This document shows positions 1 through 10,667 of a stretch of DNA of 10,667 nt, piece after piece; within the stretch, counting starts at the first letter, position 1; every line of letters starts with the position of its first letter. A model generated the notes under the pieces. That model did no database searches, was not told the DNA's origin, and saw nothing but the letters and a program-made list of their open reading frames with translations. The translations under genes were made by a program, and so were the position numbers. Source of the DNA: a virus (Duplodnaviria; Heunggongvirae; Uroviricota; Caudoviricetes); IMG/VR virus record IMGVR_UViG_2778261646_000002, positions 1 to 10,667 of that record; one strand, given 5' to 3'.

Positions 1-1
1 T

Positions 2-112
2 CTGAGACAACATCTGGCAAGGCTGGGACGGAAGTCACTGTCGTTCTCAAAATCGGTGGAGCTGCATGACAAGGTCATCGGGCATTATCTGAACATAAAA
101 CACTATCAGTAA
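2..112 (+). CDS. 3' end of an upstream ORF that runs off the window start (partial); identity not determined
   Basis: Frame 2 is open from position 2 to a TAA at 110-112 (translation ...[36 protein letters not shown]). No start is visible in the window. It could be the real end of the neighbouring gene or an out-of-frame remnant of the ybhJ 5' region. Confidence 0.3.
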
Positions 113-180
113 GTTGGAGTCATTACCCCTCTCACGATATTACCTTTGTTGGTATTGTACAGACCGCTAAAGCGTCCGGT

Positions 181-2205
181 ATGGAACGTTTCCCGCTGCC
201 GTATGTGCTGACCAACTGCCATAACTCACTCTGCGCCGTCGGCGGCACCATTAACGGTGATGACCATGTTTTTGGTTTATCGGCGGCCCAGCGTTATGGC
301 GGTATTTTTGTGCCACCGCATATTACGGTCATCCATCAATATATGCGTGAAATGATGGCAGGCGGCGGCAAAATGATCCTCGGGTCAGACAGCCATACCC
401 GTTACGGTGCGTTAGGGACAATGGCGGTTGGCGAGGGCGGCGGCGAGCTGGTAAAACAACTGCTTAATGACACCTGGGATATCGACTATCCGGGCGTGGT
501 TGCGGTGCATCTGACCGGAAAACCAGCTCTGTATGTGGGGCCACAGGATGTGGCGCTGGCTATCATCGGTGCCGTGTTCAAAAACGGTTACGTCAAAAAC
601 AAAGTGATGGAGTTCGTAGGTCCCGGTGTTGCAGCGCTCTCTACCGATTTCCGTAACAGCGTTGACGTGATGACCACTGAAACGACCTGTTTAAGTTCTG
701 TCTGGCAAACCGATGAAGAAGTCCATAACTGGCTGGCGCTGCACGGTCGCGGCCAGGATTACTGCCAACTTAACCCTCAACCAATGGCGTACTACGATGG
801 CTGCATCAGCGTTGATTTAAGCGCCATCAAACCAATGATTGCGCTGCCATTCCACCCGAGCAACGTGTATGAAATCGACACGCTGAACCAGAACCTGACC
901 GACATTCTGCGTGAGATTGAAATTGAGTCCGAACGTGTGGCGCACGGTAAAGCCAGACTCTCGCTGCTGGATAAAGTGGAAAATGGTCGCCTGAAAGTGC
1001 AGCAGGGGATTATCGCGGGCTGTTCTGGCGGTAACTATGAAAACGTCATCGCGGCGGCGAATGCGCTGCGCGGTCAATCCTGTGGCAATGACACCTTCTC
1101 GTTAGCGGTTTACCCGTCATCACAGCCCGTGTTTATGGATCTCGCCAAAAAAGGTGTGGTAGCAGATTTGATTGGCGCAGGCGCAATCATCAGAACCGCG
1201 TTCTGCGGCCCATGCTTTGGCGCGGGCGATACACCAATCAATAACGGTTTGAGTATTCGCCACACCACGCGTAACTTCCCGAACCGCGAAGGCTCTAAGC
1301 CAGCTAATGGTCAGATGTCAGCGGTGGCGTTGATGGACGCTCGTTCTATCGCTGCGACTGCGGCAAACGGTGGCTATTTAACCTCTGCCAGCGAACTCGA
1401 TTGCTGGGACAACGTGCCGGAGTACGCCTTCGATGTAACGCCGTATAAAAACCGTGTTTATCAGGGCTTTGTGAAAGGGGCGACCCAGCAACCGCTGATT
1501 TACGGACCGAACATTAAAGACTGGCCGGAATTGGGTGCGCTGACTGACAATATCGTCCTCAAAGTGTGCTCAAAGATCCTCGACGAAGTGACCACCACCG
1601 ACGAACTGATTCCTTCCGGTGAAACCTCTTCTTATCGTTCAAATCCGATTGGTCTGGCGGAGTTTACCCTGTCACGCCGCGATCCAGGTTATGTTGGTAG
1701 AAGTAAAGCGACTGCTGAGCTGGAAAATCAGCGTCTGGCGGGAAATGTCAGCGAGCTGACAGAGGTGTTTGCGCGCATTAAGCAGATTGCTGGTCAGGAG
1801 CATATTGATCCGCTGCAAACTGAAATTGGCAGCATGGTCTATGCGGTGAAACCAGGCGATGGTTCTGCGCGTGAGCAGGCGGCGAGCTGTCAGCGTGTGA
1901 TTGGCGGTCTGGCGAATATTGCCGAGGAGTACGCGACTAAACGCTACCGTTCTAACGTCATCAACTGGGGGATGTTACCGCTGCAGATGGCGGAAGCACC
2001 GAACTTTGACGTAGGTGATTACATTTACATCCCTGGCATTAAAGCAGCGCTGGATAATCCGGGTACGACGTTTAAAGGTTATGTGATCCATGAAGATGCG
2101 CCGGTAACAGAGATTACGCTCTATATGGAAAGTCTGACTGCTGAAGAGCGCGAGATTATCAAGGCGGGTAGTTTGATTAACTTCAATAAAAACCGTCAGA
2201 TGTAA
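181..2205 (+). CDS. ybhJ: Aconitase-family hydratase (YbhJ-like), 674 aa as called from ATG 181
   Basis: Long ORF with aconitase-family motifs: [17 protein letters not shown], and Cys-containing segments (IAGCSGG, CGPCFG) typical of the 4Fe-4S ligand region. It sits next to ybhC as in E. coli. The frame stays open upstream to a TGA at 67-69 and no clear Shine-Dalgarno precedes ATG 181, so the true N-terminus is uncertain. Confidence 0.88.
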
Positions 2206-2231
2206 AAAAAGGCGCTATGAAATATAGCGCC
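2204..2231 (-). terminator. Candidate intrinsic terminator for the ybhC transcript (hairpin plus U-tract on the minus strand)
   Basis: Stem GGCGCTAT (2211-2218) pairs with ATAGCGCC (2224-2231) around a 5-nt loop. An A7 run at 2204-2210 gives a U-tract on the minus strand immediately after the hairpin, downstream of the ybhC stop. Confidence 0.4.
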
Positions 2232-2243
2232 CAGTTTCATTAA

Positions 2244-2277
2244 CCCGATGGTTCAGACTATCGGGTTTTCTTTTTTT
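2244..2277 (+). terminator. Candidate rho-independent terminator for ybhJ
   Basis: Stem CCCGAT (2244-2249) pairs with ATCGGG (2260-2265), with further partial pairing inside, followed by TTTTCTTTTTTT (2266-2277). The T-tract overlaps the ybhC stop codon. Confidence 0.6.
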
Positions 2278-3559
2278 ACTTCTTCGCCTCTGCAACCACT
2301 TTGCTACCCACGCCGCGGTTATTGTATTCCCACATGCGGTTGTAGTTAGTGTCATTCAGATTGCGCTGTACTTCGTCGTTATCATCAACGTTGCCAGTAT
2401 TACCCGCAAACGGACGATTGGAAATCACCGCATCGGCCCACGGTTTCGCCGTGTTAAAACCTTCGTTGATGGCGCTATCACGGATCACTACCTGACCGTT
2501 GGTATTGGCATCAACATCCAGCGAGCGGCCCAGTTGCGCCACGCCATCACCGGAAGCATTGAAACGGCTGTTTACGGCGAGGAAACCGTAATAGATGTTA
2601 GACAGCGTAGCCGGTGCAAACACATACGCTTCTTGCTGAGTACGTGAGTTCACCACGCGGAATTCGGTATTATCGAACACCACTGCGCCGCGACCAGAAA
2701 CGATATCCACATCCCCTTCAATATAGCTGTTGGTCACCAGCGTACGCGGCTGACGGTTGGTTTCCAGACGGTTCTGCACACCACTGTTGGTGACAAAGAA
2801 GGTATTCTGACGACCGAGAATGTTGACGTTATTGATCTGCACTTTGTCGCCATCAGTACGCAGTGCCACCGCCGGATGGTTACCCGCATCTACGCTATCA
2901 CCCAGCGTGTTTTCGATGGTCAGGTTTTGCAGTTGCAGGCCATTGTTTTGTGACCAGAAGACCGCAGAGCAGAGAACACCGATACTGTCGCTGCGTTTAC
3001 TCTGGCAGCTATCGTACATATACCACGCCGGTTTACCTGGCATATATTTGCCGCGCGGGTTGACGTCGTGACGCCAGTCGGCAGGGCTCATGCCACCATC
3101 AAGGGAAAGCCCAATCTTCACATCAATCGGTTTTTCACCTGTACCGTACAGAGTAATTCCACCCGGAGCGGCAGGGACATACACCGTTCCCTGATACTCA
3201 CCAGGCATCACGGCAATATACTGGCGCTTGTTGGTACGCTTGATAATTGCCGCATCTACCGCCGCCTGAATCGTGGTATGCGTTACACCTTGAGTACCCG
3301 CCGGGCCGACAACAAAGTCAGGTTGCGCAGGCAAGGTAATTGGGGAAGGATTCCACGCTGCAGCACCTGGCGTCAGGGACGCAAAATAGTGTTGAGCATC
3401 GAAATTCTGCGCTTCTTTTGCCGACAGAATCGGGCGAGAAGAGGTACCAGGCGCGGTTTGATCAGAAGGACGTTGATCGGGCGGTGTTGAGCTACAGGCG
3501 GTCAGCGTCACGCCAAAAGCCAATGCCAGCGCCAGACGGGAAACTGAAAATGTGTTCAC
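2276..3559 (-). CDS. ybhC: Pectinesterase-family outer-membrane lipoprotein / putative acyl-CoA thioesterase YbhC, 427 aa
   Basis: 427-aa ORF with an N-terminal signal peptide and lipobox (LALALAFGVTLTAC). GGAG Shine-Dalgarno upstream of the ATG at 3559. The gene lies directly beside the lambda att core, as expected for ybhC at the att-lambda locus. Confidence 0.9.
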   Translation of the reverse strand: MNTFSVSRLALALAFGVTLTACSSTPPDQRPSDQTAPGTSSRPILSAKEAQNFDAQHYFASLTPGAAAWNPSPITLPAQPDFVVGPAGTQGVTHTTIQAAVDAAIIKRTNKRQYIAVMPGEYQGTVYVPAAPGGITLYGTGEKPIDVKIGLSLDGGMSPADWRHDVNPRGKYMPGKPAWYMYDSCQSKRSDSIGVLCSAVFWSQNNGLQLQNLTIENTLGDSVDAGNHPAVALRTDGDKVQINNVNILGRQNTFFVTNSGVQNRLETNRQPRTLVTNSYIEGDVDIVSGRGAVVFDNTEFRVVNSRTQQEAYVFAPATLSNIYYGFLAVNSRFNASGDGVAQLGRSLDVDANTNGQVVIRDSAINEGFNTAKPWADAVISNRPFAGNTGNVDDNDEVQRNLNDTNYNRMWEYNNRGVGSKVVAEAKK

Positions 3560-3605
3560 AGGTTGCTCCGGGCTATGAAATAGAAAAATGAATCCGTTGA
3601 AGCCT

Positions 3606-3620
3606 GCTTTTTTATACTAA
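3606..3620. other. Phage lambda att core (15-bp common overlap sequence) at the attL prophage-host junction
   Basis: Exact GCTTTTTTATACTAA. The left flank (CCGTTGAAGCCTGC) matches the bacterial B arm and the right flank (GTTGGCATTATAAAAAAGCATTGCTTATCAATTTG...) matches the lambda P' arm, recalled from the lambda attP sequence. Confidence 0.92.
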
Positions 3621-3700
3621 GTTGGCATTATAAAAAAGCATTGCTTATCAATTTGTTGCAACGAACAGGTCACTATCAGTCAAAATAAAATCATTATTTG
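3621..3700. promoter_or_regulatory. Lambda P' arm with IHF H' site and Int arm-type binding sites P'1-P'3
   Basis: IHF-consensus-like TATCAATTTGTTG at about 3645-3657. Three tandem arm-type-like elements follow: AGGTCACTAT, CAGTCAAAAT and AAATCATTAT at about 3667-3697, matching the lambda arm-site consensus (C/A)AGTCACTAT. Confidence 0.8.
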
Positions 3701-4764
3701 ATTTCAATTTTGTCCCACTCCCTGCCTCTGTCATCACGATACTGTGATGCCATGGTGTCCGACTTATGCCCGAGAAGATGTTGAGCAAACTTATCGCTTA
3801 TCTGCTTCTCATAGAGTCTTGCAGACAAACTGCGCAACTCGTGAAAGGTAGGCGGATCCCCTTCGAAGGAAAGACCTGATGCTTTTCGTGCGCGCATAAA
3901 ATACCTTGATACTGTGCCGGATGAAAGCGGTTCACGACGAGTAGATGCAATTATGGTTTCTCCGCCAAGAATCTCTTTGCATTTATCAAGTGTTTCCTTC
4001 ATTGATATCCCGAGAGCATCAACATGCAATGCTGTTGGGATGGCAATTTTTACGCCTGTTTTGCTTTGCTCGACATAAAGATATCCATCTACGATATCAG
4101 ACCACTTCATTTCGCATAAATCACCAACTCGCTGCCCGGTAACAACAGCCAGTTCCATTGCAAGTCTAAGCCAACATGGTGATGATTCTGCTGCTTGATA
4201 AATTTTCAGGTATTCGTCAGCCGTAAGTCTTGATCTCCTTACCTCTGATTTTGCTGCGCGAGTGGCAGCGACCGGGTTTGTTGTTATATGGCCTTCAGCT
4301 ATTGCCTCTCGGAATGCATCGCTCAGTGTTGATCTGATTAACTTGGCTGACGCCGCCTTGCCCTCGTCTATGTATCCATTGAGCATTGCTGCAATTTCTT
4401 TTGTGGTGATGTCTTCAAGTGGAGCATCAGTCAGACCCCTCCTTATTGCTTTAATTTTGCTCATGTAATTTATGAGTGTCTTCTGCTTGATTCCTCTGTT
4501 GGCGAGAATTTTTTCGTAGCGATCAAGCCATGAATGTAACGTAACAGAATTATCACTGTTGATTCTCGCTGTCAGAGGCTTGTGTTTGTGTCCTGAAAAT
4601 AACTCAATGTTGGCCTGTATAGCCTCAGTGATTGCTATCCTCCTGTCTCGGCCTAATCCAAACTCTTTACCCGTCCTTGGGTCCCTGTAGCAGTAATATC
4701 CATTGTTTCTTATATAAAGATTAGGGGGTAAATCCCGGCGCTCATGACTTCGCCTTCTTCCCAT
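3694..4764 (-). CDS. int: Lambda integrase (tyrosine site-specific recombinase), 356 aa
   Basis: Translation matches lambda Int as recalled, from MGRRRSHERRDLPPNLYIRNNGYYCYRDPRTGKEFGLG to RDDRGREWDKIEIK. Tyrosine-recombinase catalytic region present (HELRSLSARLY ... LLGHKSDTMASQY). The stop lies about 74 bp from the att core, as in lambda. Confidence 0.97.
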   Translation of the reverse strand: MGRRRSHERRDLPPNLYIRNNGYYCYRDPRTGKEFGLGRDRRIAITEAIQANIELFSGHKHKPLTARINSDNSVTLHSWLDRYEKILANRGIKQKTLINYMSKIKAIRRGLTDAPLEDITTKEIAAMLNGYIDEGKAASAKLIRSTLSDAFREAIAEGHITTNPVAATRAAKSEVRRSRLTADEYLKIYQAAESSPCWLRLAMELAVVTGQRVGDLCEMKWSDIVDGYLYVEQSKTGVKIAIPTALHVDALGISMKETLDKCKEILGGETIIASTRREPLSSGTVSRYFMRARKASGLSFEGDPPTFHELRSLSARLYEKQISDKFAQHLLGHKSDTMASQYRDDRGREWDKIEIK

Positions 4765-4960
4765 TTCTGATCCTCTTCAAAAGGCTACCTGTTACTGGTC
4801 GATTTAAGTCAACCTTTACCGCTGATTCGTGGAACAGATACTCTCTTCCATCCTTAACCGGAGGAGGGAATATCCTGCATTCGCGCACCCATCGACGAAC
4901 TGTTTCAAGGCTTCTTGGGCGTCGCTGGCGTGCGTTCCACTCCTGAAGTGTCAAGTACAT
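4742..4960 (-). CDS. xis: Lambda excisionase Xis, 72 aa
   Basis: Translation from the internal Met, MYLTLQEWNARQRRPRSLETVRRWVRECRIFPPPVKDGREYLFHESAVKVDLNRPVTGSLLKRIRNGKKAKS, matches lambda Xis. The 3' end overlaps the int start by 23 nt, as in lambda. The longer 102-aa ORF to 5050 is an upstream in-frame extension. Confidence 0.93.
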   Translation of the reverse strand: MYLTLQEWNARQRRPRSLETVRRWVRECRIFPPPVKDGREYLFHESAVKVDLNRPVTGSLLKRIRNGKKAKS

Positions 4961-4986
4961 CGCAAAGTCTCCGCAATTACACGCAA

Positions 4987-5008
4987 GAAAAAGCCGCATT
5001 GATGCGGC
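4987..5008 (-). terminator. Candidate intrinsic terminator on the minus strand just upstream of xis
   Basis: Stem GCCGCA (4993-4998), loop TTGA, stem TGCGGC (5003-5008). An A-run at 4988-4992 on the plus strand gives a U-tract after the hairpin on the minus strand. Confidence 0.4.
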
Positions 5009-5077
5009 GATGGTAGGTCTGGATATCATTGAGCAATGAACAGGCCTCATCGAGTGTGAGGCGGTGTTATTTCATGG

Positions 5078-5338
5078 TTAGTCCTTGCGTAGCTCGCTGA
5101 TTCTTCTGTAAGTCTCTGGTGCTTTGTTTCCGTGTATCTTCATTTCAAACTTCAACAGAGCAACGAGAGAATCCCATTCGTTGAGGATGCCTTTGAATGC
5201 CGGAACGCGCTTTGCAACCTTGTCGAATGAATCTCTGATTTCTGGAATCTGCTCAACAAGTGCAACGCATCGCCGGAAGTCTGCTGCGTCATGTGGAGCG
5301 CCGAAGTGATGACCATAGATATTTTTTTCAGTCCACAT
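5078..5338 (-). CDS. Hypothetical phage protein, 86 aa
   Basis: ORF with protein-like composition (MWTEKNIYGHHFGAPHDAADFRRCVALVEQIPEIRD...). No obvious Shine-Dalgarno before ATG 5338. An overlapping alternative ORF in another frame (start ATG 5421 with a GGAG Shine-Dalgarno, end 5152) competes for this region. Confidence 0.45.
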   Translation of the reverse strand: MWTEKNIYGHHFGAPHDAADFRRCVALVEQIPEIRDSFDKVAKRVPAFKGILNEWDSLVALLKFEMKIHGNKAPETYRRISELRKD

Positions 5339-5447
5339 GCGATTGAGGCAAGAGTTGCGCTACTGATGCCGACATCGCCAGTTGATTGCCATTTCAAAAC
5401 CTTCATAGCCAAATCTGACATTTCTTGTCTCCAATAAAAAACCGCCA

Positions 5448-5615
5448 TCAGGCGTCTTGGTGTTCTTTCAGTTCTTCAATTCGAATATTGGTTACGTCTG
5501 CATGCGCTATCTGCGCCCATATCATCCAGTGGTTATAGCAGTCGTTGATGTCCTCTGCTTCGATAACCCTGTCGAATGGCTCTCCATTCCATTCACCTGT
5601 GACTCGGAAGTGCAT
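5448..5615 (-). CDS. Hypothetical small phage protein, 55 aa
   Basis: ATG at 5615-5613 preceded by GGAG 8 nt upstream. Translation MHFRVTGEWNGEPFDRVIEAEDINDCYNHWMIWAQIAHADVTNIRIEELKEHQDA. Shorter than the 60-aa cutoff of the ORF track. Confidence 0.45.
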   Translation of the reverse strand: MHFRVTGEWNGEPFDRVIEAEDINDCYNHWMIWAQIAHADVTNIRIEELKEHQDA

Positions 5616-5626
5616 TTATCATCTCC

Positions 5627-5653
5627 ATAAAACAAAACTCGCCGTAGCGAGTT
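5627..5653 (-). terminator. Candidate intrinsic terminator on the minus strand between the DUF551 gene and the 55-aa ORF
   Basis: Stem AACTCGC (5636-5642), loop CGTA, stem GCGAGTT (5647-5653). On the minus strand it is followed by TTTTGTTTTAT. Confidence 0.45.
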
Positions 5654-5715
5654 CAGATAAAAGAAATCCCCGCGAGTGCGAGGATTGTTATTCACCTTTG
5701 ACGGCAAGTTGCAGG

Positions 5716-6243
5716 TTAGCCACGGTTAACCTCCTGCGGCGGTTCTGGCAGCGGCATCCAGTGGGTTACGTCATCCAAGATATTTCCTGATAAATATGTG
5801 AAAGCTCTATATTTTTTGTAATCAATTGGACTCATTACCCAGTTCCAATATGCTGCCACTATTTGACCTTGACTAAATGCCAGTAACATTTTGGTGTCGT
5901 CCGGCATTCGCTCACTACAGCTTATCCAACCATCCGGAGTTACCGGCACTGGCTGAGCGGTATAAAGCGGTGTTATATCTGCCCGAAAATTACATGCTTT
6001 ATGCAGCCGCACCCCCCGTTCGACTTCTGCTTTGTCAGGATACATACCAGTGAACGTGTTATATTCACGGTCAATTTGCGTGAAGGTTACCTTCCACGCC
6101 ACCGGCTCTGCCTCAAGCGATGCCAGAGCAATTCGTGCCAGTTCTTCCGCTTCTTCTGCTGGCAGTACAACGTTGCTACCAGGTCTGTATGTTTCGCGCC
6201 ACTGCTTGATTGTCAGCAGTCGCTCTTTGGTAATAGTGGTCAT
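5716..6243 (-). CDS. DUF551-domain prophage protein, 175 aa
   Basis: C-terminal region WISCSERMPDD...VAAYWNW...VTHWMPLPEPP fits the DUF551 pattern common in enterobacterial prophage early regions. The ATG overlaps the upstream stop (ATGA) and has an AAGGA Shine-Dalgarno. Confidence 0.8.
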   Translation of the reverse strand: MTTITKERLLTIKQWRETYRPGSNVVLPAEEAEELARIALASLEAEPVAWKVTFTQIDREYNTFTGMYPDKAEVERGVRLHKACNFRADITPLYTAQPVPVTPDGWISCSERMPDDTKMLLAFSQGQIVAAYWNWVMSPIDYKKYRAFTYLSGNILDDVTHWMPLPEPPQEVNRG

Positions 6244-6755
6244 GCCGCGTTTCCTTCTTTCTTATTAACAATTACACCGTCATATATTTCATTAAGGTGC
6301 CCTCTCAACTCCATGCGCCTTAATGCAGATAACATGTAATCGCATTCAACCTGCTTATTTCCAGTAAATGGCTTATCGTCAGGATTACCCCAACAGCAAT
6401 TACCCTTGGGCCATCCATGTACTTTCCGTACTCTTCCGTTAACAACGTGAAGTAATCCCCAGCCGGGAGGTAAATCCTCAACTGAAATAATTTCCGGCTC
6501 ACTAATAAAGAATCGCCAGTCGCCCATGCCAAGTGAGGGATTTTTACGGAAACGCTTTTTTCTATCTGCCAACAAGTCAGCACGAGAACACTTCGCCTCT
6601 ATCAGGCATGATGCTGAATTTCTGAATCCCATAGCATCTGGCTGTTCTCCGGTACTGGTTACAGCTATAAAGCGGTCATGAAAACAGACCTTGAACCCGT
6701 TGCGCTTAAGGAACTTGTGCGCAATCTGACAGAGTTCGCTGTGTGTTAACGCCAT
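6240..6755 (-). CDS. Hypothetical protein with a PD-(D/E)XK nuclease-like motif, 171 aa from MALTHSELCQ
   Basis: Preferred start is ATG 6755, with AAGGAG 6 nt upstream and 1 nt after the stop of the Ea22-like gene. Contains GEQPD ... LIEAKCS, a PD-x(n)-E-x-K arrangement, and a Cys-containing C-terminal half (GNCCWGNPDD, VECDY). Functional call is motif-based only. Confidence 0.65.
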   Translation of the reverse strand: MALTHSELCQIAHKFLKRNGFKVCFHDRFIAVTSTGEQPDAMGFRNSASCLIEAKCSRADLLADRKKRFRKNPSLGMGDWRFFISEPEIISVEDLPPGWGLLHVVNGRVRKVHGWPKGNCCWGNPDDKPFTGNKQVECDYMLSALRRMELRGHLNEIYDGVIVNKKEGNAA

Positions 6756-6756
6756 A

Positions 6757-7350
6757 TCACTCTCCTTTGATGCGAATGCCAGCGGCACGGGAATCATTCC
6801 ATCGCTTTACTTCTTCACGAATTACGTCAATGCATTCTTTCGAATCCATTAGGTAATCTTCATCAAAAAGACGTTCCTGTTCGTTTTCTATCGCAACAAT
6901 GATTGCTTCAACTAACTTTTGTACCTGAGAACCACTTTCTAACTCTGCTATGCGCTTACTCCCATCCGAGATAACGCCCTCGTAATACTCACGCTGCTCG
7001 TTGAGTTTTGATTTTGCCAACTCCAGTTGTTTTGTTAGTTCCGCAATACGGCAAACATCGTTGATACGCGTTTCCTCTAATGCGTTGATCTCATCCAACA
7101 ATGCCAGCGCAACATTTGGATTAAAAGCAGCAATAAATTCAGCGTTTGCATAAGCCTGAACATCTGTTTCAACCAGGCAGTTAACATGACATTCTGCAAT
7201 CACGCCACCGGGTTCTCCTTTCCATTTTTGGCAAACAAAAACTCCTGTTAAATTGCCGTGCTGGTTAACAGATGTATGCCCTACGATGTAGCTCCCTTTC
7301 GTTGCCTTTTCTGCCGCATCACGCAGTGCCTGATAATTAATTTCGCTCAC
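6757..7350 (-). CDS. Ead/Ea22-like phage protein, 197 aa (GTG start)
   Basis: N-terminus MSEINYQALRDAAEKATKG resembles the Ea22-like family of lambdoid prophages, with a coiled-coil-like central region. GTG start at 7350 with GGAGGA Shine-Dalgarno; GTGA overlap with the upstream stop. Confidence 0.7.
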   Translation of the reverse strand: MSEINYQALRDAAEKATKGSYIVGHTSVNQHGNLTGVFVCQKWKGEPGGVIAECHVNCLVETDVQAYANAEFIAAFNPNVALALLDEINALEETRINDVCRIAELTKQLELAKSKLNEQREYYEGVISDGSKRIAELESGSQVQKLVEAIIVAIENEQERLFDEDYLMDSKECIDVIREEVKRWNDSRAAGIRIKGE

Positions 7351-7571
7351 TCTTCATCCTCCAAGTCGGCAACGGCGTCCATCACATCAGAACCGCGAAT
7401 AACCTCAAAAGCACGGCAGGCCATTTGAAATACCAGTTGCTCTTGCGGGTGAGGAGACTCCCAATATTTGAAGCCTGGGCGATGCGTGTACCCCATCATT
7501 GAATAAAAATCACCAGCAAGCTTAATCGCGGCATCGACAAGCTCTCTGTTAGTCATTCTTTTTCCGCTCAC
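7347..7571 (-). CDS. Hypothetical small phage protein, 74 aa (GTG start)
   Basis: GTG at 7571 with AGGAGG 7 nt upstream, overlapping the upstream stop (GTGA). Acidic C-terminus (ADLEDEE). Confidence 0.6.
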   Translation of the reverse strand: MSGKRMTNRELVDAAIKLAGDFYSMMGYTHRPGFKYWESPHPQEQLVFQMACRAFEVIRGSDVMDAVADLEDEE

Positions 7572-7987
7572 TGGTTGCCTCCTTTGCGAAGCTGGGCGGC
7601 TAACTCATCACATATGTGCGTCAAAGAACAAAGTTTGATTGATGGATGTTCGCGCATCATCTCTACTCCCTGCGCCCGCACTTCAGACAGGAAAGCATCG
7701 GTGGCTGGCATATTTCCTGTTGCCTTCATTGCCTCCAAAATAACCAGAACGCCATCTCGCCCAACCACCTCAGCGATAACCTCGGTGTTGTCGCCAACAA
7801 CATCGCAGAATGCCTGAACTGCCTTACGAGCCAGCGCACTCTCCGCCGCCAGCGCCGCGCACTTGGCCTCCGCTTCAGCAAATTTACGCACCAGATATTC
7901 AGCGTTTGTTTCGTTAACCTTTAAATCGCTTGGGATGCATTTACCTTTCAGGAATCCATCCATCTCAATTAGTGACATTTGTTTCAT
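7568..7987 (-). CDS. Hypothetical phage protein, 139 aa
   Basis: ATG 7987 overlaps the upstream stop (ATGA) with a GGAG Shine-Dalgarno. Ala-rich, predicted helical ([26 protein letters not shown]). No family recognised. Confidence 0.65.
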
Positions 7988-8148
7988 TTCTTCCCACTCC
8001 GCAACATCGCATTCAGATATTTGTTTTGATTCACTGACGGAAAAGAATTTCTCTTTAGCAATTCCTCTCTCGATGGCATTGGCTTTACGCGCTGGCGAAT
8101 AATCATTTCTGCCGGAAGAATGCCGGGGTTGTATGCAAGTCCTCTCAT
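7984..8148 (-). CDS. Hypothetical small phage protein, 54 aa (MRGLAYNPG...); possible longer forms start at 8166 or 8184
   Basis: Within the 101-aa ORF 7984..8289, the ATG at 8148 is the only start with a Shine-Dalgarno (GAGGAA) and lies downstream of the stop of the preceding gene at 8159-8161. Longer forms would overlap that gene. Confidence 0.45.
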
Positions 8149-8158
8149 GGTAAATTCC

Positions 8159-8455
8159 TCAGTCATTACTGATAGCGCCATAGCGTGATCGATAATTACG
8201 CAGCCGCGGGTCGATATATTCAGGGAAGTGGGTATATGTGGCTTTGCGGAATGGTCGGATTGATGTTTCGTTTGTTCGGTCCTTCTCATTTTTTAACGCG
8301 AGTTGTATATCGCGTCGGTACATCCGTTCTGCTTTTGTTTCTGGTGGCAGATCGATAAACGTGTCGAAAATGTTTTTGATATTTTCCAGCACCTCCGCCT
8401 TGGAGCTACCGGAGCAATTGCGCGGGTCATCCGCACCATACAGAGGCGCTGGCAT
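8159..8455 (-). CDS. Hypothetical phage protein, 98 aa
   Basis: ATG 8455 with an AAGG Shine-Dalgarno-like sequence. Charged, protein-like composition. Follows the DUF669-like gene after a 23-bp gap. Confidence 0.5.
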
Positions 8456-8478
8456 AATGGGAGCCTTATTTTCAGTAA

Positions 8479-9066
8479 TCAGAAAGCAGGGTAATCGTTC
8501 TTGCTGTAACCATAATCATCTGCATGATTCTGGCTTACGTTTTTAGAGCGATTGTCTTTATCTTTGAGATTGGCAACCATGTTGGCGATAGTTTCTGGTT
8601 GCTTGCCTTCTGCCTTTTCTTTAAGGGTTTGACCTGTTTGTGCAATAAACGGGATGCGTATTTCCATCTGGTAGTTGTCTGCGCCAGTCTTTTTGTTTGT
8701 GGTTAATACTTTCTGGAGCACTAACCCGATTTTCTTTCCATGAAATTCAGGTGCAACAAATTTACTGGCGGAAACCATATGCTGCGTTAATTGTCCAATC
8801 CCGGCACACCCCATCATGGCGTGAACGACATTTGCGCCAAATTTGTTTTCCGTTCCGTCATTTTTCTGAACACAGACGCTAAGATATTGGATTTTACGTC
8901 CGTCGTCGGATTCTCCAGAAAACTCAATAAATTTGGCTCCTTTTTCTGATTGCTTTAGTTCTGCTTCAGTAATGGTAATGATATGGGCGCCAGTTTCGTT
9001 AATAAAACCACCTTGCCCTGCGGTCAGTGCTGCTTCTTCGTTATAAGTAAAAATCACGTTGCTCAT
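8479..9066 (-). CDS. DUF669-like protein, putative ssDNA-binding partner of Sak4, 195 aa
   Basis: Start ATG 9066 overlaps the Sak4 stop (ATGA) with an AAGGA Shine-Dalgarno. Gene position and size fit the protein that commonly follows Sak4-type ATPases. The C-terminus ...DDYGYSKNDYPAF resembles the aromatic tail of SSB proteins. Family assignment is from memory. Confidence 0.65.
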   Translation of the reverse strand: MSNVIFTYNEEAALTAGQGGFINETGAHIITITEAELKQSEKGAKFIEFSGESDDGRKIQYLSVCVQKNDGTENKFGANVVHAMMGCAGIGQLTQHMVSASKFVAPEFHGKKIGLVLQKVLTTNKKTGADNYQMEIRIPFIAQTGQTLKEKAEGKQPETIANMVANLKDKDNRSKNVSQNHADDYGYSKNDYPAF

Positions 9067-9743
9067 GCGGCGTTTTCCTTAATTTGATGAACATTATTGA
9101 TGCCGTAGTAATCACAAACAGTGGCATCGACGAAAGAGAGATCGTTATCAATCTCATTGGAATCAAACATTCCCATTGGGGATTTGACAGTGTCTGCACC
9201 GTTGTTTTTCGTGGTGAAAAAGAACTGGTCATCGCGGGTAAGAGTGCGAAGAACTATAGTAAACATGCCTTCGACAGTGATTTTCTCGTCCAGCATTTTG
9301 CCGATAGTTTTCATTTTCACGCGCCCCATAGGGGTTTCTTCGGTATGTGCAAGAAAATAGACTCTCAGGTCATCAGGTGCATCCTGTGCAGCCTTAATCA
9401 CCTCCCATGCGTGGCGGCCTATCTCAGTAAATTTATCAAACGATTTTTCTTCTGAGCGGCGCATAAACTCATTGCTCATCACATACTGGAAGTCATCAAC
9501 AATAACGATTCTTTTTCCGTATTCGTGAGCACGCTTAATTACAGCAACTATTACGTCCCATTTGTCAGTGGTAACTACGGTTCCTTTTTTTGCTCTGGCA
9601 TCCCATGCAAGCCAGTCTTTTGATTTAAATGGTAGCGGCTTGCCTATTGGTTTTATAAGTATTGCTTCCTCTGGATTGATATTTCTCATGCTGGTTGATT
9701 TTCCGGTGCCAGATTCACCGAGTATTAATGTCGCAGTTCCCAT
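9063..9743 (-). CDS. Sak4-type RecA-like ATPase / single-strand annealing protein, 226 aa
   Basis: N-terminal Walker A GESGTGKST and Walker B RIVIVDD. Size of about 226 aa is typical of the core-only RecA-like Sak4 proteins of lambdoid and lactococcal phages. GAGG Shine-Dalgarno before ATG 9743. Confidence 0.85.
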   Translation of the reverse strand: MGTATLILGESGTGKSTSMRNINPEEAILIKPIGKPLPFKSKDWLAWDARAKKGTVVTTDKWDVIVAVIKRAHEYGKRIVIVDDFQYVMSNEFMRRSEEKSFDKFTEIGRHAWEVIKAAQDAPDDLRVYFLAHTEETPMGRVKMKTIGKMLDEKITVEGMFTIVLRTLTRDDQFFFTTKNNGADTVKSPMGMFDSNEIDNDLSFVDATVCDYYGINNVHQIKENAA

Positions 9744-9751
9744 AATTTGCC

Positions 9752-9940
9752 TCAGAATGGTAATTCGGATGGGCAGGAAAGAAATTCGCGCTCATTCATG
9801 CGCTCTCTTTGCGCCTGCCATAAACAAAGTTGTTTCTTTGATTTATCTCCCGCTTTACGCCAGTAACGAGCCTCAGCAATGTGATATTCTCTTTTTAATC
9901 GACTTAACTCTGGAGTTTTCGCCAGTTCTACCGGAATCAT
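9752..9940 (-). CDS. Hypothetical small phage protein, 62 aa
   Basis: ATG at 9940 overlaps the kil stop (ATGA) and is preceded by GGAGGT. The upstream in-frame ATG at 9952 lies inside kil and lacks a Shine-Dalgarno. Confidence 0.5.
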   Translation of the reverse strand: MIPVELAKTPELSRLKREYHIAEARYWRKAGDKSKKQLCLWQAQRERMNEREFLSCPSELPF

Positions 9941-10050
9941 TTTGACCTCCATTTTCTGTAGGCTTCTACGGCTTCACGAAACATCTTTTCATCGCCAATA
10001 AAAGTGGCGATAGTGAATTTAGTCTGGATAGCCATAAGTGTTTTATCCAT
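9937..10050 (-). CDS. kil: Kil-like host cell-division inhibitor, 37 aa
   Basis: MDKTLMAIQTKFTIATFIGDEKMFREAVEAYRKW closely matches the N-terminus of lambda Kil as recalled. AGGAG Shine-Dalgarno present. Overlaps the cIII 3' end by 8 nt. Confidence 0.75.
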   Translation of the reverse strand: MDKTLMAIQTKFTIATFIGDEKMFREAVEAYRKWRSK

Positions 10051-10183
10051 TTTTGGGAACTCCTGGCTGATTAAGTATGTCGATAAGGCGTTTCCATCCA
10101 TCACGTAATTTACGTGTGATTCGTTCAAGTAAAGATTCGGAAGGGCAGCCAGCAACAGGCCACCCTGCAATGGCATATTGCAT
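10043..10183 (-). CDS. cIII: CIII-like protein (FtsH inhibitor that stabilises CII), 46 aa
   Basis: MQYAIAGWPVAGCPSESLLERITRKLRDGWKRLIDILNQPGVPKNG matches lambda CIII as recalled, with a shorter C-terminus. AAGGAG Shine-Dalgarno upstream of ATG 10183. The longer 80-aa form in the ORF track is an upstream extension. Confidence 0.85.
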   Translation of the reverse strand: MQYAIAGWPVAGCPSESLLERITRKLRDGWKRLIDILNQPGVPKNG

Positions 10184-10246
10184 GGTGTGCTCCTTATTTA
10201 TACATAACGAAAAACGCCTCGAGTGAAGCGTTATTGGTATGCATAT

Positions 10247-10270
10247 AAAAAGGCCCTCACACTGGAGGGC
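10247..10270 (-). terminator. Candidate intrinsic terminator on the minus strand upstream of cIII
   Basis: Stem GCCCTC (10253-10258), loop ACACTG, stem GAGGGC (10265-10270). An A5 run at 10247-10251 gives a U-tract after the hairpin on the minus strand. Confidence 0.5.
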
Positions 10271-10332
10271 AAAGAAGATTTCCAATAATCAGAACAAGTC
10301 GGCTCCTGTTTAGTTACGAGCGACATTGCTCC

Positions 10333-10360
10333 GTGTATTCACTCGTTGGAATGAATACAC
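10333..10360. repeat. Perfect 9-bp inverted repeat with a 10-nt spacer
   Basis: GTGTATTCA (10333-10341) and TGAATACAC (10352-10360). No flanking T-tract on either strand. Confidence 0.5.
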
Positions 10361-10374
10361 AGTGCTTCTCTGTG

Positions 10375-10493
10375 CTAAATAATTAAATCATATTCTGATT
10401 TGGTTAGTTTATACGCACCTCCTCTGGTGTAATATGCAAATCTGTCTTTGCTTCCATCAGAATTGTATACCCACCCACCAAATGGAAAGATAG
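10375..10493 (-). pseudogene. 3' remnant of a phage gene truncated by the IS insertion
   Basis: Two minus-strand frames are open from the IS junction: one ends at a stop at 10404-10406 (...ILMEAKTDLHITPEEVRIN*), the other at 10375-10377 (...WVYNSDGSKDRFAYYTRGGAYKLTKSEYDLII*). No start codon region is present on the window side of the IS, and the correct frame is unresolved. Confidence 0.3.
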
Positions 10494-10667
10494 TGAACCG
10501 CCCCGGGTTTCCTGGAGAGTGTTTTATCTGTGAACTCAGGCTGCCAGATCATCGTTTCCGATGGAAGCATAATAAGCTTTTTCTGCTTCTGCCGGAGGAG
10601 TATGGCCCAGCCTTTCCAGCAATCGTCGATTGTTATACCAGTCCACCCACGTGAGTGTGGCCAGTTC
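10494..10667 (-). mobile_element. IS629-like (IS3-family) insertion sequence, right end (partial; continues beyond the window)
   Basis: Plus strand from 10494 reads TGAACCGCCCCGGGTTTCCTGGAGAGTGTTTTATCTGTGAACTCA, the reverse complement of the IS629 right terminus as recalled, with the TG...CA ends typical of IS3-family inverted repeats. Followed by the transposase 3' end. Confidence 0.85.
10536..10667 (-). CDS. IS3-family transposase (OrfB), C-terminal 43 codons (partial)
   Basis: Minus-strand translation ...ELATLTWVDWYNNRRLLERLGHTPPAEAEKAYYASIGNDDLAA* carries the conserved W-x-x-WYN-x-x-R-x-x-x-x-LG C-terminal signature of IS3-family transposases. Stop codon at 10536-10538. Confidence 0.85.
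   Translation of the reverse strand, partial: ELATLTWVDWYNNRRLLERLGHTPPAEAEKAYYASIGNDDLAA

Follow-up and report, generated by a model that had tools for sequence, protein, structure and literature searches.

We analysed a 10,667-nucleotide (nt) stretch of viral DNA (Caudoviricetes; IMG/VR record IMGVR_UViG_2778261646_000002, positions 1 to 10,667), hereafter the window, focusing on a chain of small minus-strand genes at 5716-8455. The window matches the chromosome of Escherichia coli O7:K1 CE10 (NC_017646.1) over its full length, with a single 1-nt indel, and in the CE10 record a lambda-type int/xis pair adjoins ybhC, which places the prophage at attB-lambda (ybhC / int). An initial annotation had read the chain as eight packed open reading frames (ORFs), none with an assignable function, and had proposed that any undescribed system in the window would most likely lie there. 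Our analysis indicates that the chain very probably forms the accessory, distal portion of the early-left (pL) operon in a lambdoid prophage of the HK620/HK629 type at this site in a CE10-like chromosome, made up of shuffled single-gene cassettes. This reading is carried by the identities, synteny and packing of the genes, their independent assortment, the fold and motif of a nuclease-like product, and the loss of the promoter region.

The block holds seven consecutive genes; the 55-amino-acid (aa) gene that had been counted with them lies separately at 5448-5615. The chain, its flanking genes and the features between them are as follows.
8159-8455, minus strand: abc2, 98 aa (PF11043, phrog_656)
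7984-8148, minus strand: DUF2737 gene, 54 aa (PF10930)
7568-7987, minus strand: EaE/HkaH/Oad2-family protein, 139 aa (phrog_614)
7347-7571, minus strand: HK629 gp34 family protein, 74 aa, GTG start (phrog_4132)
6757-7350, minus strand: Ead/Ea22-family protein, 197 aa, GTG start (PF13935)
6240-6755, minus strand: predicted PD-(D/E)XK nuclease-fold protein, 171 aa (fold and catalytic motif)
5716-6243, minus strand: EaA/HkaE-type protein with C-terminal DUF551, 175 aa, final gene of the coupled chain (PF04448)
5635-5686, minus strand: two tandem intrinsic-terminator-like hairpins (terminator scan, RNA fold)
5448-5615, minus strand: lambda orf55 homologue, 55 aa (phrog_676)
9063-9743, minus strand: Sak4-like ATPase (identity to HkaL)
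8479-9066, minus strand: SSB-like protein, cognate to the Sak4-like ATPase (identity to HkaK)

Profile searches matched every product to a PHROG family, each at E <= 1e-33, so the ORFs are not chance ones, and four products matched Pfam models well above threshold. The earlier labels DUF551, Ea22-like and PD-(D/E)XK-like are borne out by these Pfam matches and by the nuclease fold and motif described below. Scanning all products against NCBIfam yielded no meaningful match inside the chain, and PDB sequence searches with the nuclease, DUF551, 139-aa, 74-aa and Ea22-like proteins returned no significant match. Seven plus-strand ORFs antisense to the chain were set aside as spurious, having no PHROG match except for one 21-residue fragment.

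The close packing noted in the initial annotation is real. Read on the minus strand, neighbouring genes overlap by ATGA at 7984-7987 and at 6240-6243 and by GTGA at 7568-7571 and at 7347-7350; the Ea22-like and nuclease genes meet at TGAtATG with a 1-nt gap (6753-6759), and a 10-nt gap containing GAGGA separates the 98-aa and 54-aa genes. A Shine-Dalgarno (SD)-like motif lies 4-9 nt upstream of every chain start. From cIII (10183) to the DUF551 gene (5716), all 11 junctions have gaps of at most 23 nt, six being -4 overlaps and one a -8 overlap; because this packing runs along the whole operon, it is not peculiar to the uncharacterised stretch. The 55-aa gene is set apart by a 100-nt spacer in which two hairpins with U-tracts (5686-5665 and 5654-5635, minus strand) follow directly on the DUF551 stop codon. 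The hairpin region folds at -35.5 kcal/mol (z = -3.3 relative to shuffled sequences), and with these predicted terminators the coupled chain ends before the orf55 homologue is reached.

The first gene of the chain is, by homology, abc2, although it had been listed among genes for which no function could be assigned. Its product matches PF11043 (Anti-RecBCD_p2) along its entire length (2.7e-37, 127.2 bits against a cut-off of 25, residues 1-98 of 98) and phrog_656 ('abc2 anti-RecBCD') at 6.9e-47, with 63% identity to P22 Abc2 and 67% to HK620 HkaJ. An alignment with P22 Abc2 shows that the N-terminal segment is conserved, as is a 10-residue motif including Pro68, the residue that docks into host PpiB (PMC9836394). 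The window Sak4 and SSB proteins are 99.6% and 97% identical to HK620 HkaL and HkaK, and the HK620 hkaM-sak4-ssb-abc2 module has been characterised experimentally (PMC5928155). By this similarity the 98-aa product is a RecBCD hijacker that functionally belongs to the Sak4-SSB recombination module.

The 54-aa protein matches PF10930 (DUF2737; 1.8e-31, 108.2 bits; cut-off 25). It shares 98% identity with HkaI and 77% with P22 Orf56, and is also equivalent to HK97 gp38. We collected 80 viral contigs that encode Abc2 (84-100% identity) and recorded which window proteins each of them carries. Full-length DUF2737 was found in 78, whatever the upstream recombinase, and the two exceptions are contigs that end just past abc2. 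The two genes could accordingly be thought of as a functional unit in which the small protein serves as cofactor or regulator of the RecBCD hijack. Besides this linkage, the idea draws on near-equal numbers of phage records with full-length DUF2737 and with Abc2 (223 versus 227) and on the gene start 10 nt past the abc2 stop, a spacing identical to that in P22; the linkage could, however, merely reflect the short intergenic distance. Abc2 alone binds RecBCD in vitro and in structures, in HK446 and ES18 another gene intervenes between abc2 and the DUF2737 gene, and in two distant Abc2 homologues the next gene downstream carries no DUF2737 annotation. Roughly 475 further records, mostly Jerseyvirus-type Salmonella phages, contain the C-terminal half of DUF2737 as well; the Abc2 search gave just 84 Salmonella-phage records, versus 420 for DUF2737. 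In the two such records that we examined, this half lies among NinH/NinZ-like small genes with no abc2 annotated nearby. We therefore regard a two-gene unit as rather doubtful.

The 139-aa protein is, by sequence comparison, a member of the EaE/HkaH/Oad2 family and thereby a candidate counter-defence protein. It matches phrog_614 at 9.5e-48, and phrog_614 is likewise the best match for Oad2, HkaH, EaE and HK629 gp35. Identity is 57% to HK629 gp35, 39% to HkaH and 32% to P22 EaE; against HK446 gp27 (Oad2), BLASTP gives E 4e-32 and 42% identity. A family alignment shows conserved N-terminal, EAKC, PATDAFL-EVRAQ and QLRKGG segments around a variable middle. Relative to Oad2, the first 37 residues are near-identical, PATDAFL-EVRAQ is held in common and the C-terminal QLRKGGNQ is identical. 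Oad2 came out of a screen of an HK446 library for inhibition of the abortive tRNase P2 OLD, and it binds OLD directly; the authors of that July 2026 preprint relate it to P22 EaE and describe the recombination-linked locus as a hotspot of counter-defence genes (10.64898/2026.07.10.737580). HK446 gp27 lies directly past the DUF2737 gene with a 4-nt (ATGA) overlap, which is the position of the 139-aa gene here, so the earlier suggestion that loci of this type carry counter-defence genes holds. The 139-aa protein differs from Oad2 in being 36 residues shorter and in its divergent middle part. The HkaM-like gene of the operon was also considered as a counterpart of gp33, the OLD trigger of HK446, and was rejected because the two have no similarity.

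The next gene begins at a GTG with AAGGAGG 6 nt upstream, and its homologues (88 cluster representatives) are mostly 74 aa among the matches listed; a 69-aa model from the Prokaryotic Genome Annotation Pipeline (PGAP) is therefore less likely. The 74-aa product is 97% identical to HK629 gp34 (phrog_4132) and has no match in Pfam, PDB or PADLOC. The two proteins further along that carry Pfam domains are, judged by their domain matches, mosaics of the Ead/Ea22 and EaA/DUF551 types. In the 197-aa protein, PF13935 (Ead_Ea22) covers residues 2-138 (7.4e-28, 98.3 bits; cut-off 27). The coiled-coil segment of lambda Ea22 (residues 28-102) is matched by residues 72-139 at 51% identity, and the N-terminal part is similar to HkaG. 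Past residue 139, BLASTP shows no further similarity to lambda Ea22, the remainder being unlike the lambda C-terminal domain (CTD) solved by nuclear magnetic resonance, and no PDB chain was matched at E <= 0.1; variable CTDs are typical of the Ead/Ea22 family according to the literature. The 175-aa protein carries PF04448 (DUF551) at residues 105-170 (79.6 bits against a cut-off of 22), a domain 90% identical to the C-terminus of HK629 gp33. Beyond the hairpins, the 55-aa protein is 93% identical to lambda Orf55 (lambdap35; phrog_676 at 2.5e-38), for which a modelling study of 2021 considered a possible role in modulating RNA polymerase; in P22, HK620 and HK629 its place is taken by eaG/hkaD. 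Taken together, two of the seven chain genes have, by homology, a function or a characterised relative, and for the DUF2737, 74-aa and DUF551 proteins the matches support no mechanism.

The remaining gene of the chain encodes a predicted nuclease. Its start had been placed at 6797 (185 aa), but homologues are mostly 160-176 aa and align from the Met at 6755, and we therefore rejected that start in favour of the ATG at 6755 (171 aa; SD AAGGAG, spacer 6). None of 313 homologues from Enterobacterales prophages has a Pfam domain. D40, E53, K55, R58, D60 and D64 are invariant in 32/32 homologues (59-87% identity), and D40, E53 and K55 fit the PD-(D/E)XK catalytic motif D...(D/E)-x-K. The AlphaFold2 model (predicted local distance difference test 84, predicted template modelling score 0.79) indicates that the protein is a PD-(D/E)XK fold, of a restriction-endonuclease-like alpha/beta, MmcB/DUF1052-like kind. 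An exhaustive profile search gave 3324 representatives at 50% identity; for 2453 the match is at E <= 1e-10. Ten remote relatives are without any Pfam family, apart from two exceptions with extra domains: P0345 joins the nuclease domain to a TniB-like N-terminal part, and P0430, encoded on a phage contig, is a natural in-frame fusion of the nuclease domain with a C-terminal DUF551 that occurs in two independent samples (L096 3073-3783, L097 3044-3754). Among accessible sources we found no biochemistry for MmcB/DUF1052 or for the window nuclease family.

Genomic context marks the nuclease gene as an independent cassette. It has no counterpart in lambda, P22, HK620 or HK629. Its place in Providencia and Serratia prophages is the early-right nin region (L003 5001-5489; L004-L006 5001-5519), where one context has it between Lar-like and RusA genes and the other has it upstream of DUF1367, Dam and Q; across the viral loci its flanking genes vary from locus to locus. 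The fusion P0430, together with an E. coli nuclease/DUF551 hybrid (P0020) and the adjacency of the two genes here with an ATGA overlap, invites the thought that the nuclease works together with the DUF551 protein encoded downstream, which would serve for targeting or as an adaptor. We consider this quite unlikely: no DUF551 gene neighbours the nuclease in the Providencia and Serratia prophages, the gene after the nuclease is variable in the viral loci, and DUF551 is also joined to Ead/Ea22 and EaA N-terminal parts and, per the literature, to pyrophosphohydrolases, as a general-purpose module would be. Because DUF551 (at least 7995 cluster representatives) has such varied partners, it looks, from its distribution, like a portable C-terminal adaptor domain, and this is a simpler reading than a dedicated pairing with the nuclease.

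Comparison of gene content across the 80 Abc2 loci shows the genes to assort independently. Sak4 with SSB is present in 45 loci, the 139-aa family in 42, Orf55 in 32, the Ea22-like protein in 24, DUF551 in 22, the nuclease in 6 and the 74-aa protein in 4. At 20 loci with the same xis, the slot from the DUF2737 gene to xis ranges from 1.6 to 4.2 kb, and the other slots cover 8-50% of the window slot at >= 90% nucleotide identity. Among 5426 complete E. coli genomes, 4892 contain portions of the 7-kb stretch and only 2 contain >= 80% of it, and no phage record covers 80% of positions 5000-9100. Because the genes assort independently, the neighbours of the nuclease vary and the nuclease occupies the nin region elsewhere, the block is, by gene content, a stack of independently exchanged single-gene cassettes and not one system.

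This bears directly on the proposal that all or much of the block constitutes a single undescribed multi-gene system for defence, exclusion or counter-defence. Tight translational coupling, a recognised hotspot position and the number of uncharacterised products all speak for it. Yet the coupling spans the whole operon, housekeeping recombination genes included; the genes assort independently in related loci; the nuclease sits in a different operon in other prophages; and the exact combination occurs in just the two genomes mentioned. PADLOC-DB 2.0 gave no match at E <= 0.1 for any of the eight products of 5448-8455, with weak matches only for the Sak4-like ATPase upstream of the chain. We judge a single system here to be highly improbable, and the expectation that the block would harbour one is not upheld.

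Several observations nevertheless weigh against the reading preferred here. Two linkages hint at functional pairing, namely that of Abc2 with DUF2737 (78/80) and the nuclease-DUF551 fusion (P0430). The assignment of the nuclease has its own difficulties: PF06319 (MmcB) matches none of the 32 members at E <= 10 and none of ten remote relatives at E <= 0.01, and a profile of the nuclease family reaches the 3dnx sequence at E 0.19 only. The family thus shares the MmcB fold but is not an MmcB/DUF1052 member by sequence model. Sub-threshold matches to the archaeal Holliday-junction resolvase Hjc (PF01870) appear in 17/32 members (best E 0.004), with none for the window protein and none above the gathering threshold. 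PGAP, in addition, flags the Ea22-like gene ('incomplete, missing C-terminus') and, in part, the nuclease gene (split into a protein of 110 aa and a 'frameshifted' pseudogene) as pseudogenes, though both ORFs are intact. We rejected the nuclease frameshift, since the 185-codon ORF is uninterrupted in the window and in RefSeq and aligns with the family end to end. The 110-aa protein (WP_157838713.1) has counterparts in truncated versions that are widely annotated, among them P0053 (111 aa) and P0086 (110 aa), and the flags are probably an annotation artefact from truncated reference proteins. Lastly, the specificity of Oad2 is narrow: an HK75 homologue 54% identical to it gave no protection against P2 OLD (10.64898/2026.07.10.737580). 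Since that homologue is inactive, it may be that OLD is no target at all of the 139-aa protein, whose identity to Oad2 is 42%, and family membership does not reveal its target.

The state of the prophage bears on what the chain could do in this host. The remnant is about 16 kb long and lies between ybhC and ybhB. Homology to HK620/HK629 ends at window position 10365/10366, about 180 nt upstream of cIII, and an insertion sequence (IS) element with an IS3 family transposase follows; past it are only a DNA-transfer gene fragment, a few immI-region genes, a frameshifted tailspike gene and then ybhB. Because homology stops at 10365 and IS3 follows, pL, nutL and N and the immunity, replication and lysis genes are gone, as are most morphogenesis genes. 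The pL promoter and N were lost through an IS3-linked deletion, leaving a decapitated prophage remnant. With IS3 in place of pL, nutL and N, expression of the chain is doubtful, and it is probably silent or weakly expressed in a CE10-like genome. A scan of the window found no sigma-70-like promoter of note on the minus strand of the chain. The sole Rfam match in the window is the lambda cIII thermoregulator (RF01804; 10138-10196, minus strand, full-length, 88.5 bits), with no RNA family inside 5716-8455, and the window has zero Chi sites.

It follows that the chain could be dead cargo, its genes intact-looking but unexpressed parts of a decaying remnant and without present host function. The replacement of the promoter, N and most phage functions by IS3, the frameshifts in the neighbouring gene at 5078-5421 and in the tailspike gene, the PGAP pseudogene flags and the absence of a promoter of note within the chain favour this. 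The seven ORFs are all intact, however, with 97-100% identity to genes of the viable phages HK620 and HK629; the nuclease keeps its catalytic residues, and read-out from IS3 or another promoter is possible. We find the two sides evenly poised. This question concerns activity in this host and not the identity of the genes.

Two differences near the chain were seen as well. In the phrog_1229 gene (5078-5421, minus strand), the homopolymer at 5322-5328 is A7 in the window and A8 in NC_017646.1; the window copy is frameshifted into 86-aa and 98-aa ORFs, and the RefSeq copy encodes an intact 114 aa. The A7/A8 discrepancy may stem from sequencing or assembly, or may be a genuine slippage mutation. 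On the host side, ybhJ (aconitase-like hydratase; window 181-2205, RefSeq 820370-823160 with upstream sequence) is annotated without its N-terminus, directly downstream of an IS1 family transposase, and the left prophage flank is therefore IS-scarred as well.

In an intact phage, by analogy with other lambdoid phages, the chain would be read as part of a single N-antiterminated pL transcript and translated in a coupled manner, yielding early, non-essential proteins that act separately. Following this logic, Abc2 would bind RecC and redirect RecBCD in favour of the phage's own Sak4/SSB recombinase. The 139-aa protein would probably bind and block a host abortive-infection nuclease that senses tampering with RecBCD, its likely target being an OLD-type ATPase-TOPRIM enzyme or a variant of it. 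The Ead/Ea22-family protein would probably bias the lysis-lysogeny decision towards lysogeny, as lambda Ea22 does, and the 171-aa MmcB-like protein would probably process DNA that is damaged or branched, as a Mg-dependent endonuclease. A bolder version, which we hold to be unlikely, sees a fast-evolving counter-defence stack travelling with the RecBCD-manipulating module, in which the 139-aa protein blocks an OLD-family (ATPase-TOPRIM) or other abortive-infection nuclease distinct from P2 OLD, and the MmcB-like nuclease, alone or with the DUF551 protein as targeting partner, would be a new kind of accessory phage nuclease for counter-defence or for exclusion of rival DNA. This type of locus was already familiar from the papers describing the P22, HK620 and lambda genomes, and the finding is ordinary for this kind of phage and opens no long-standing question. 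What this copy contributes is a short, divergent Oad2-family variant and one member of a very large MmcB-like PD-(D/E)XK family, of which a characterised member was not found in accessible sources; the 139-aa protein and the nuclease are sensible candidates for counter-defence or DNA-repair screens.

By sequence comparison, the counterparts of the chain are hkaJ-hkaE of HK620 and abc2-orf56-ea of P22 and, by position, lambda's exo-xis region. The gene order is hkaM, sak4, ssb, abc2, hkaI, hkaH, hkaG, hkaF, hkaE, hkaD, xis, int in HK620 and erf, abc1, abc2, orf56, eaE ... eaA, eaG, eaC, xis, int in P22. Order and orientation in the window match hkaJ-hkaE and abc2-orf56-eaE...eaA-eaG: a recombinase module is followed by abc2, DUF2737 (10-nt gap), an EaE/HkaH-type gene (ATGA overlap), an Ead/Ea22-type gene and a DUF551/EaA-type gene, and then by a terminator-bearing gap, one or more small genes, xis and int. 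This synteny agrees with the initial placement of the chain in the hypervariable distal early-left segment, between the recombination module and xis. Identities to HK620 and P22 range from 32% to 98% per gene, the small gene past the gap is lambda orf55 instead of eaG, and pL/N is deleted here.

The lambda exo-xis region (orf60a, orf63, orf61, ea22, ea8.5, orf55) fills the same slot from the recombination genes to xis with early, non-essential, mosaic genes, and it has the Ead/Ea22 coiled-coil (51%) and orf55 (93%) in common with the window. The window lacks homologues of orf60a, orf61, orf63 and ea8.5, its module is Sak4/SSB/Abc2 where lambda has Exo/Bet/Gam, and its Ea22-like CTD is unrelated to that of lambda Ea22. 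In comparison with all three phages, the window adds the 74-aa gene, as in HK629, and the MmcB-like nuclease cassette.

At the level of single proteins, the window Abc2 resembles P22 Abc2 in its full-length PF11043 match and its conserved N-terminal and Pro68-bearing segments, and RecC binding is predicted for it by analogy, but it is paired with Sak4/SSB and not with Erf/Abc1. The 139-aa protein has its best PHROG family, its operon position and its overlap past DUF2737 in common with Oad2. The window nuclease differs from MmcB/DUF1052 (PF06319, COG5321; PDB 3dnx) in that its family forms a separate large clade without a Pfam model, and in that it belongs to phage accessory regions (Enterobacterales prophages and phage contigs) and not to alphaproteobacterial chromosomes.

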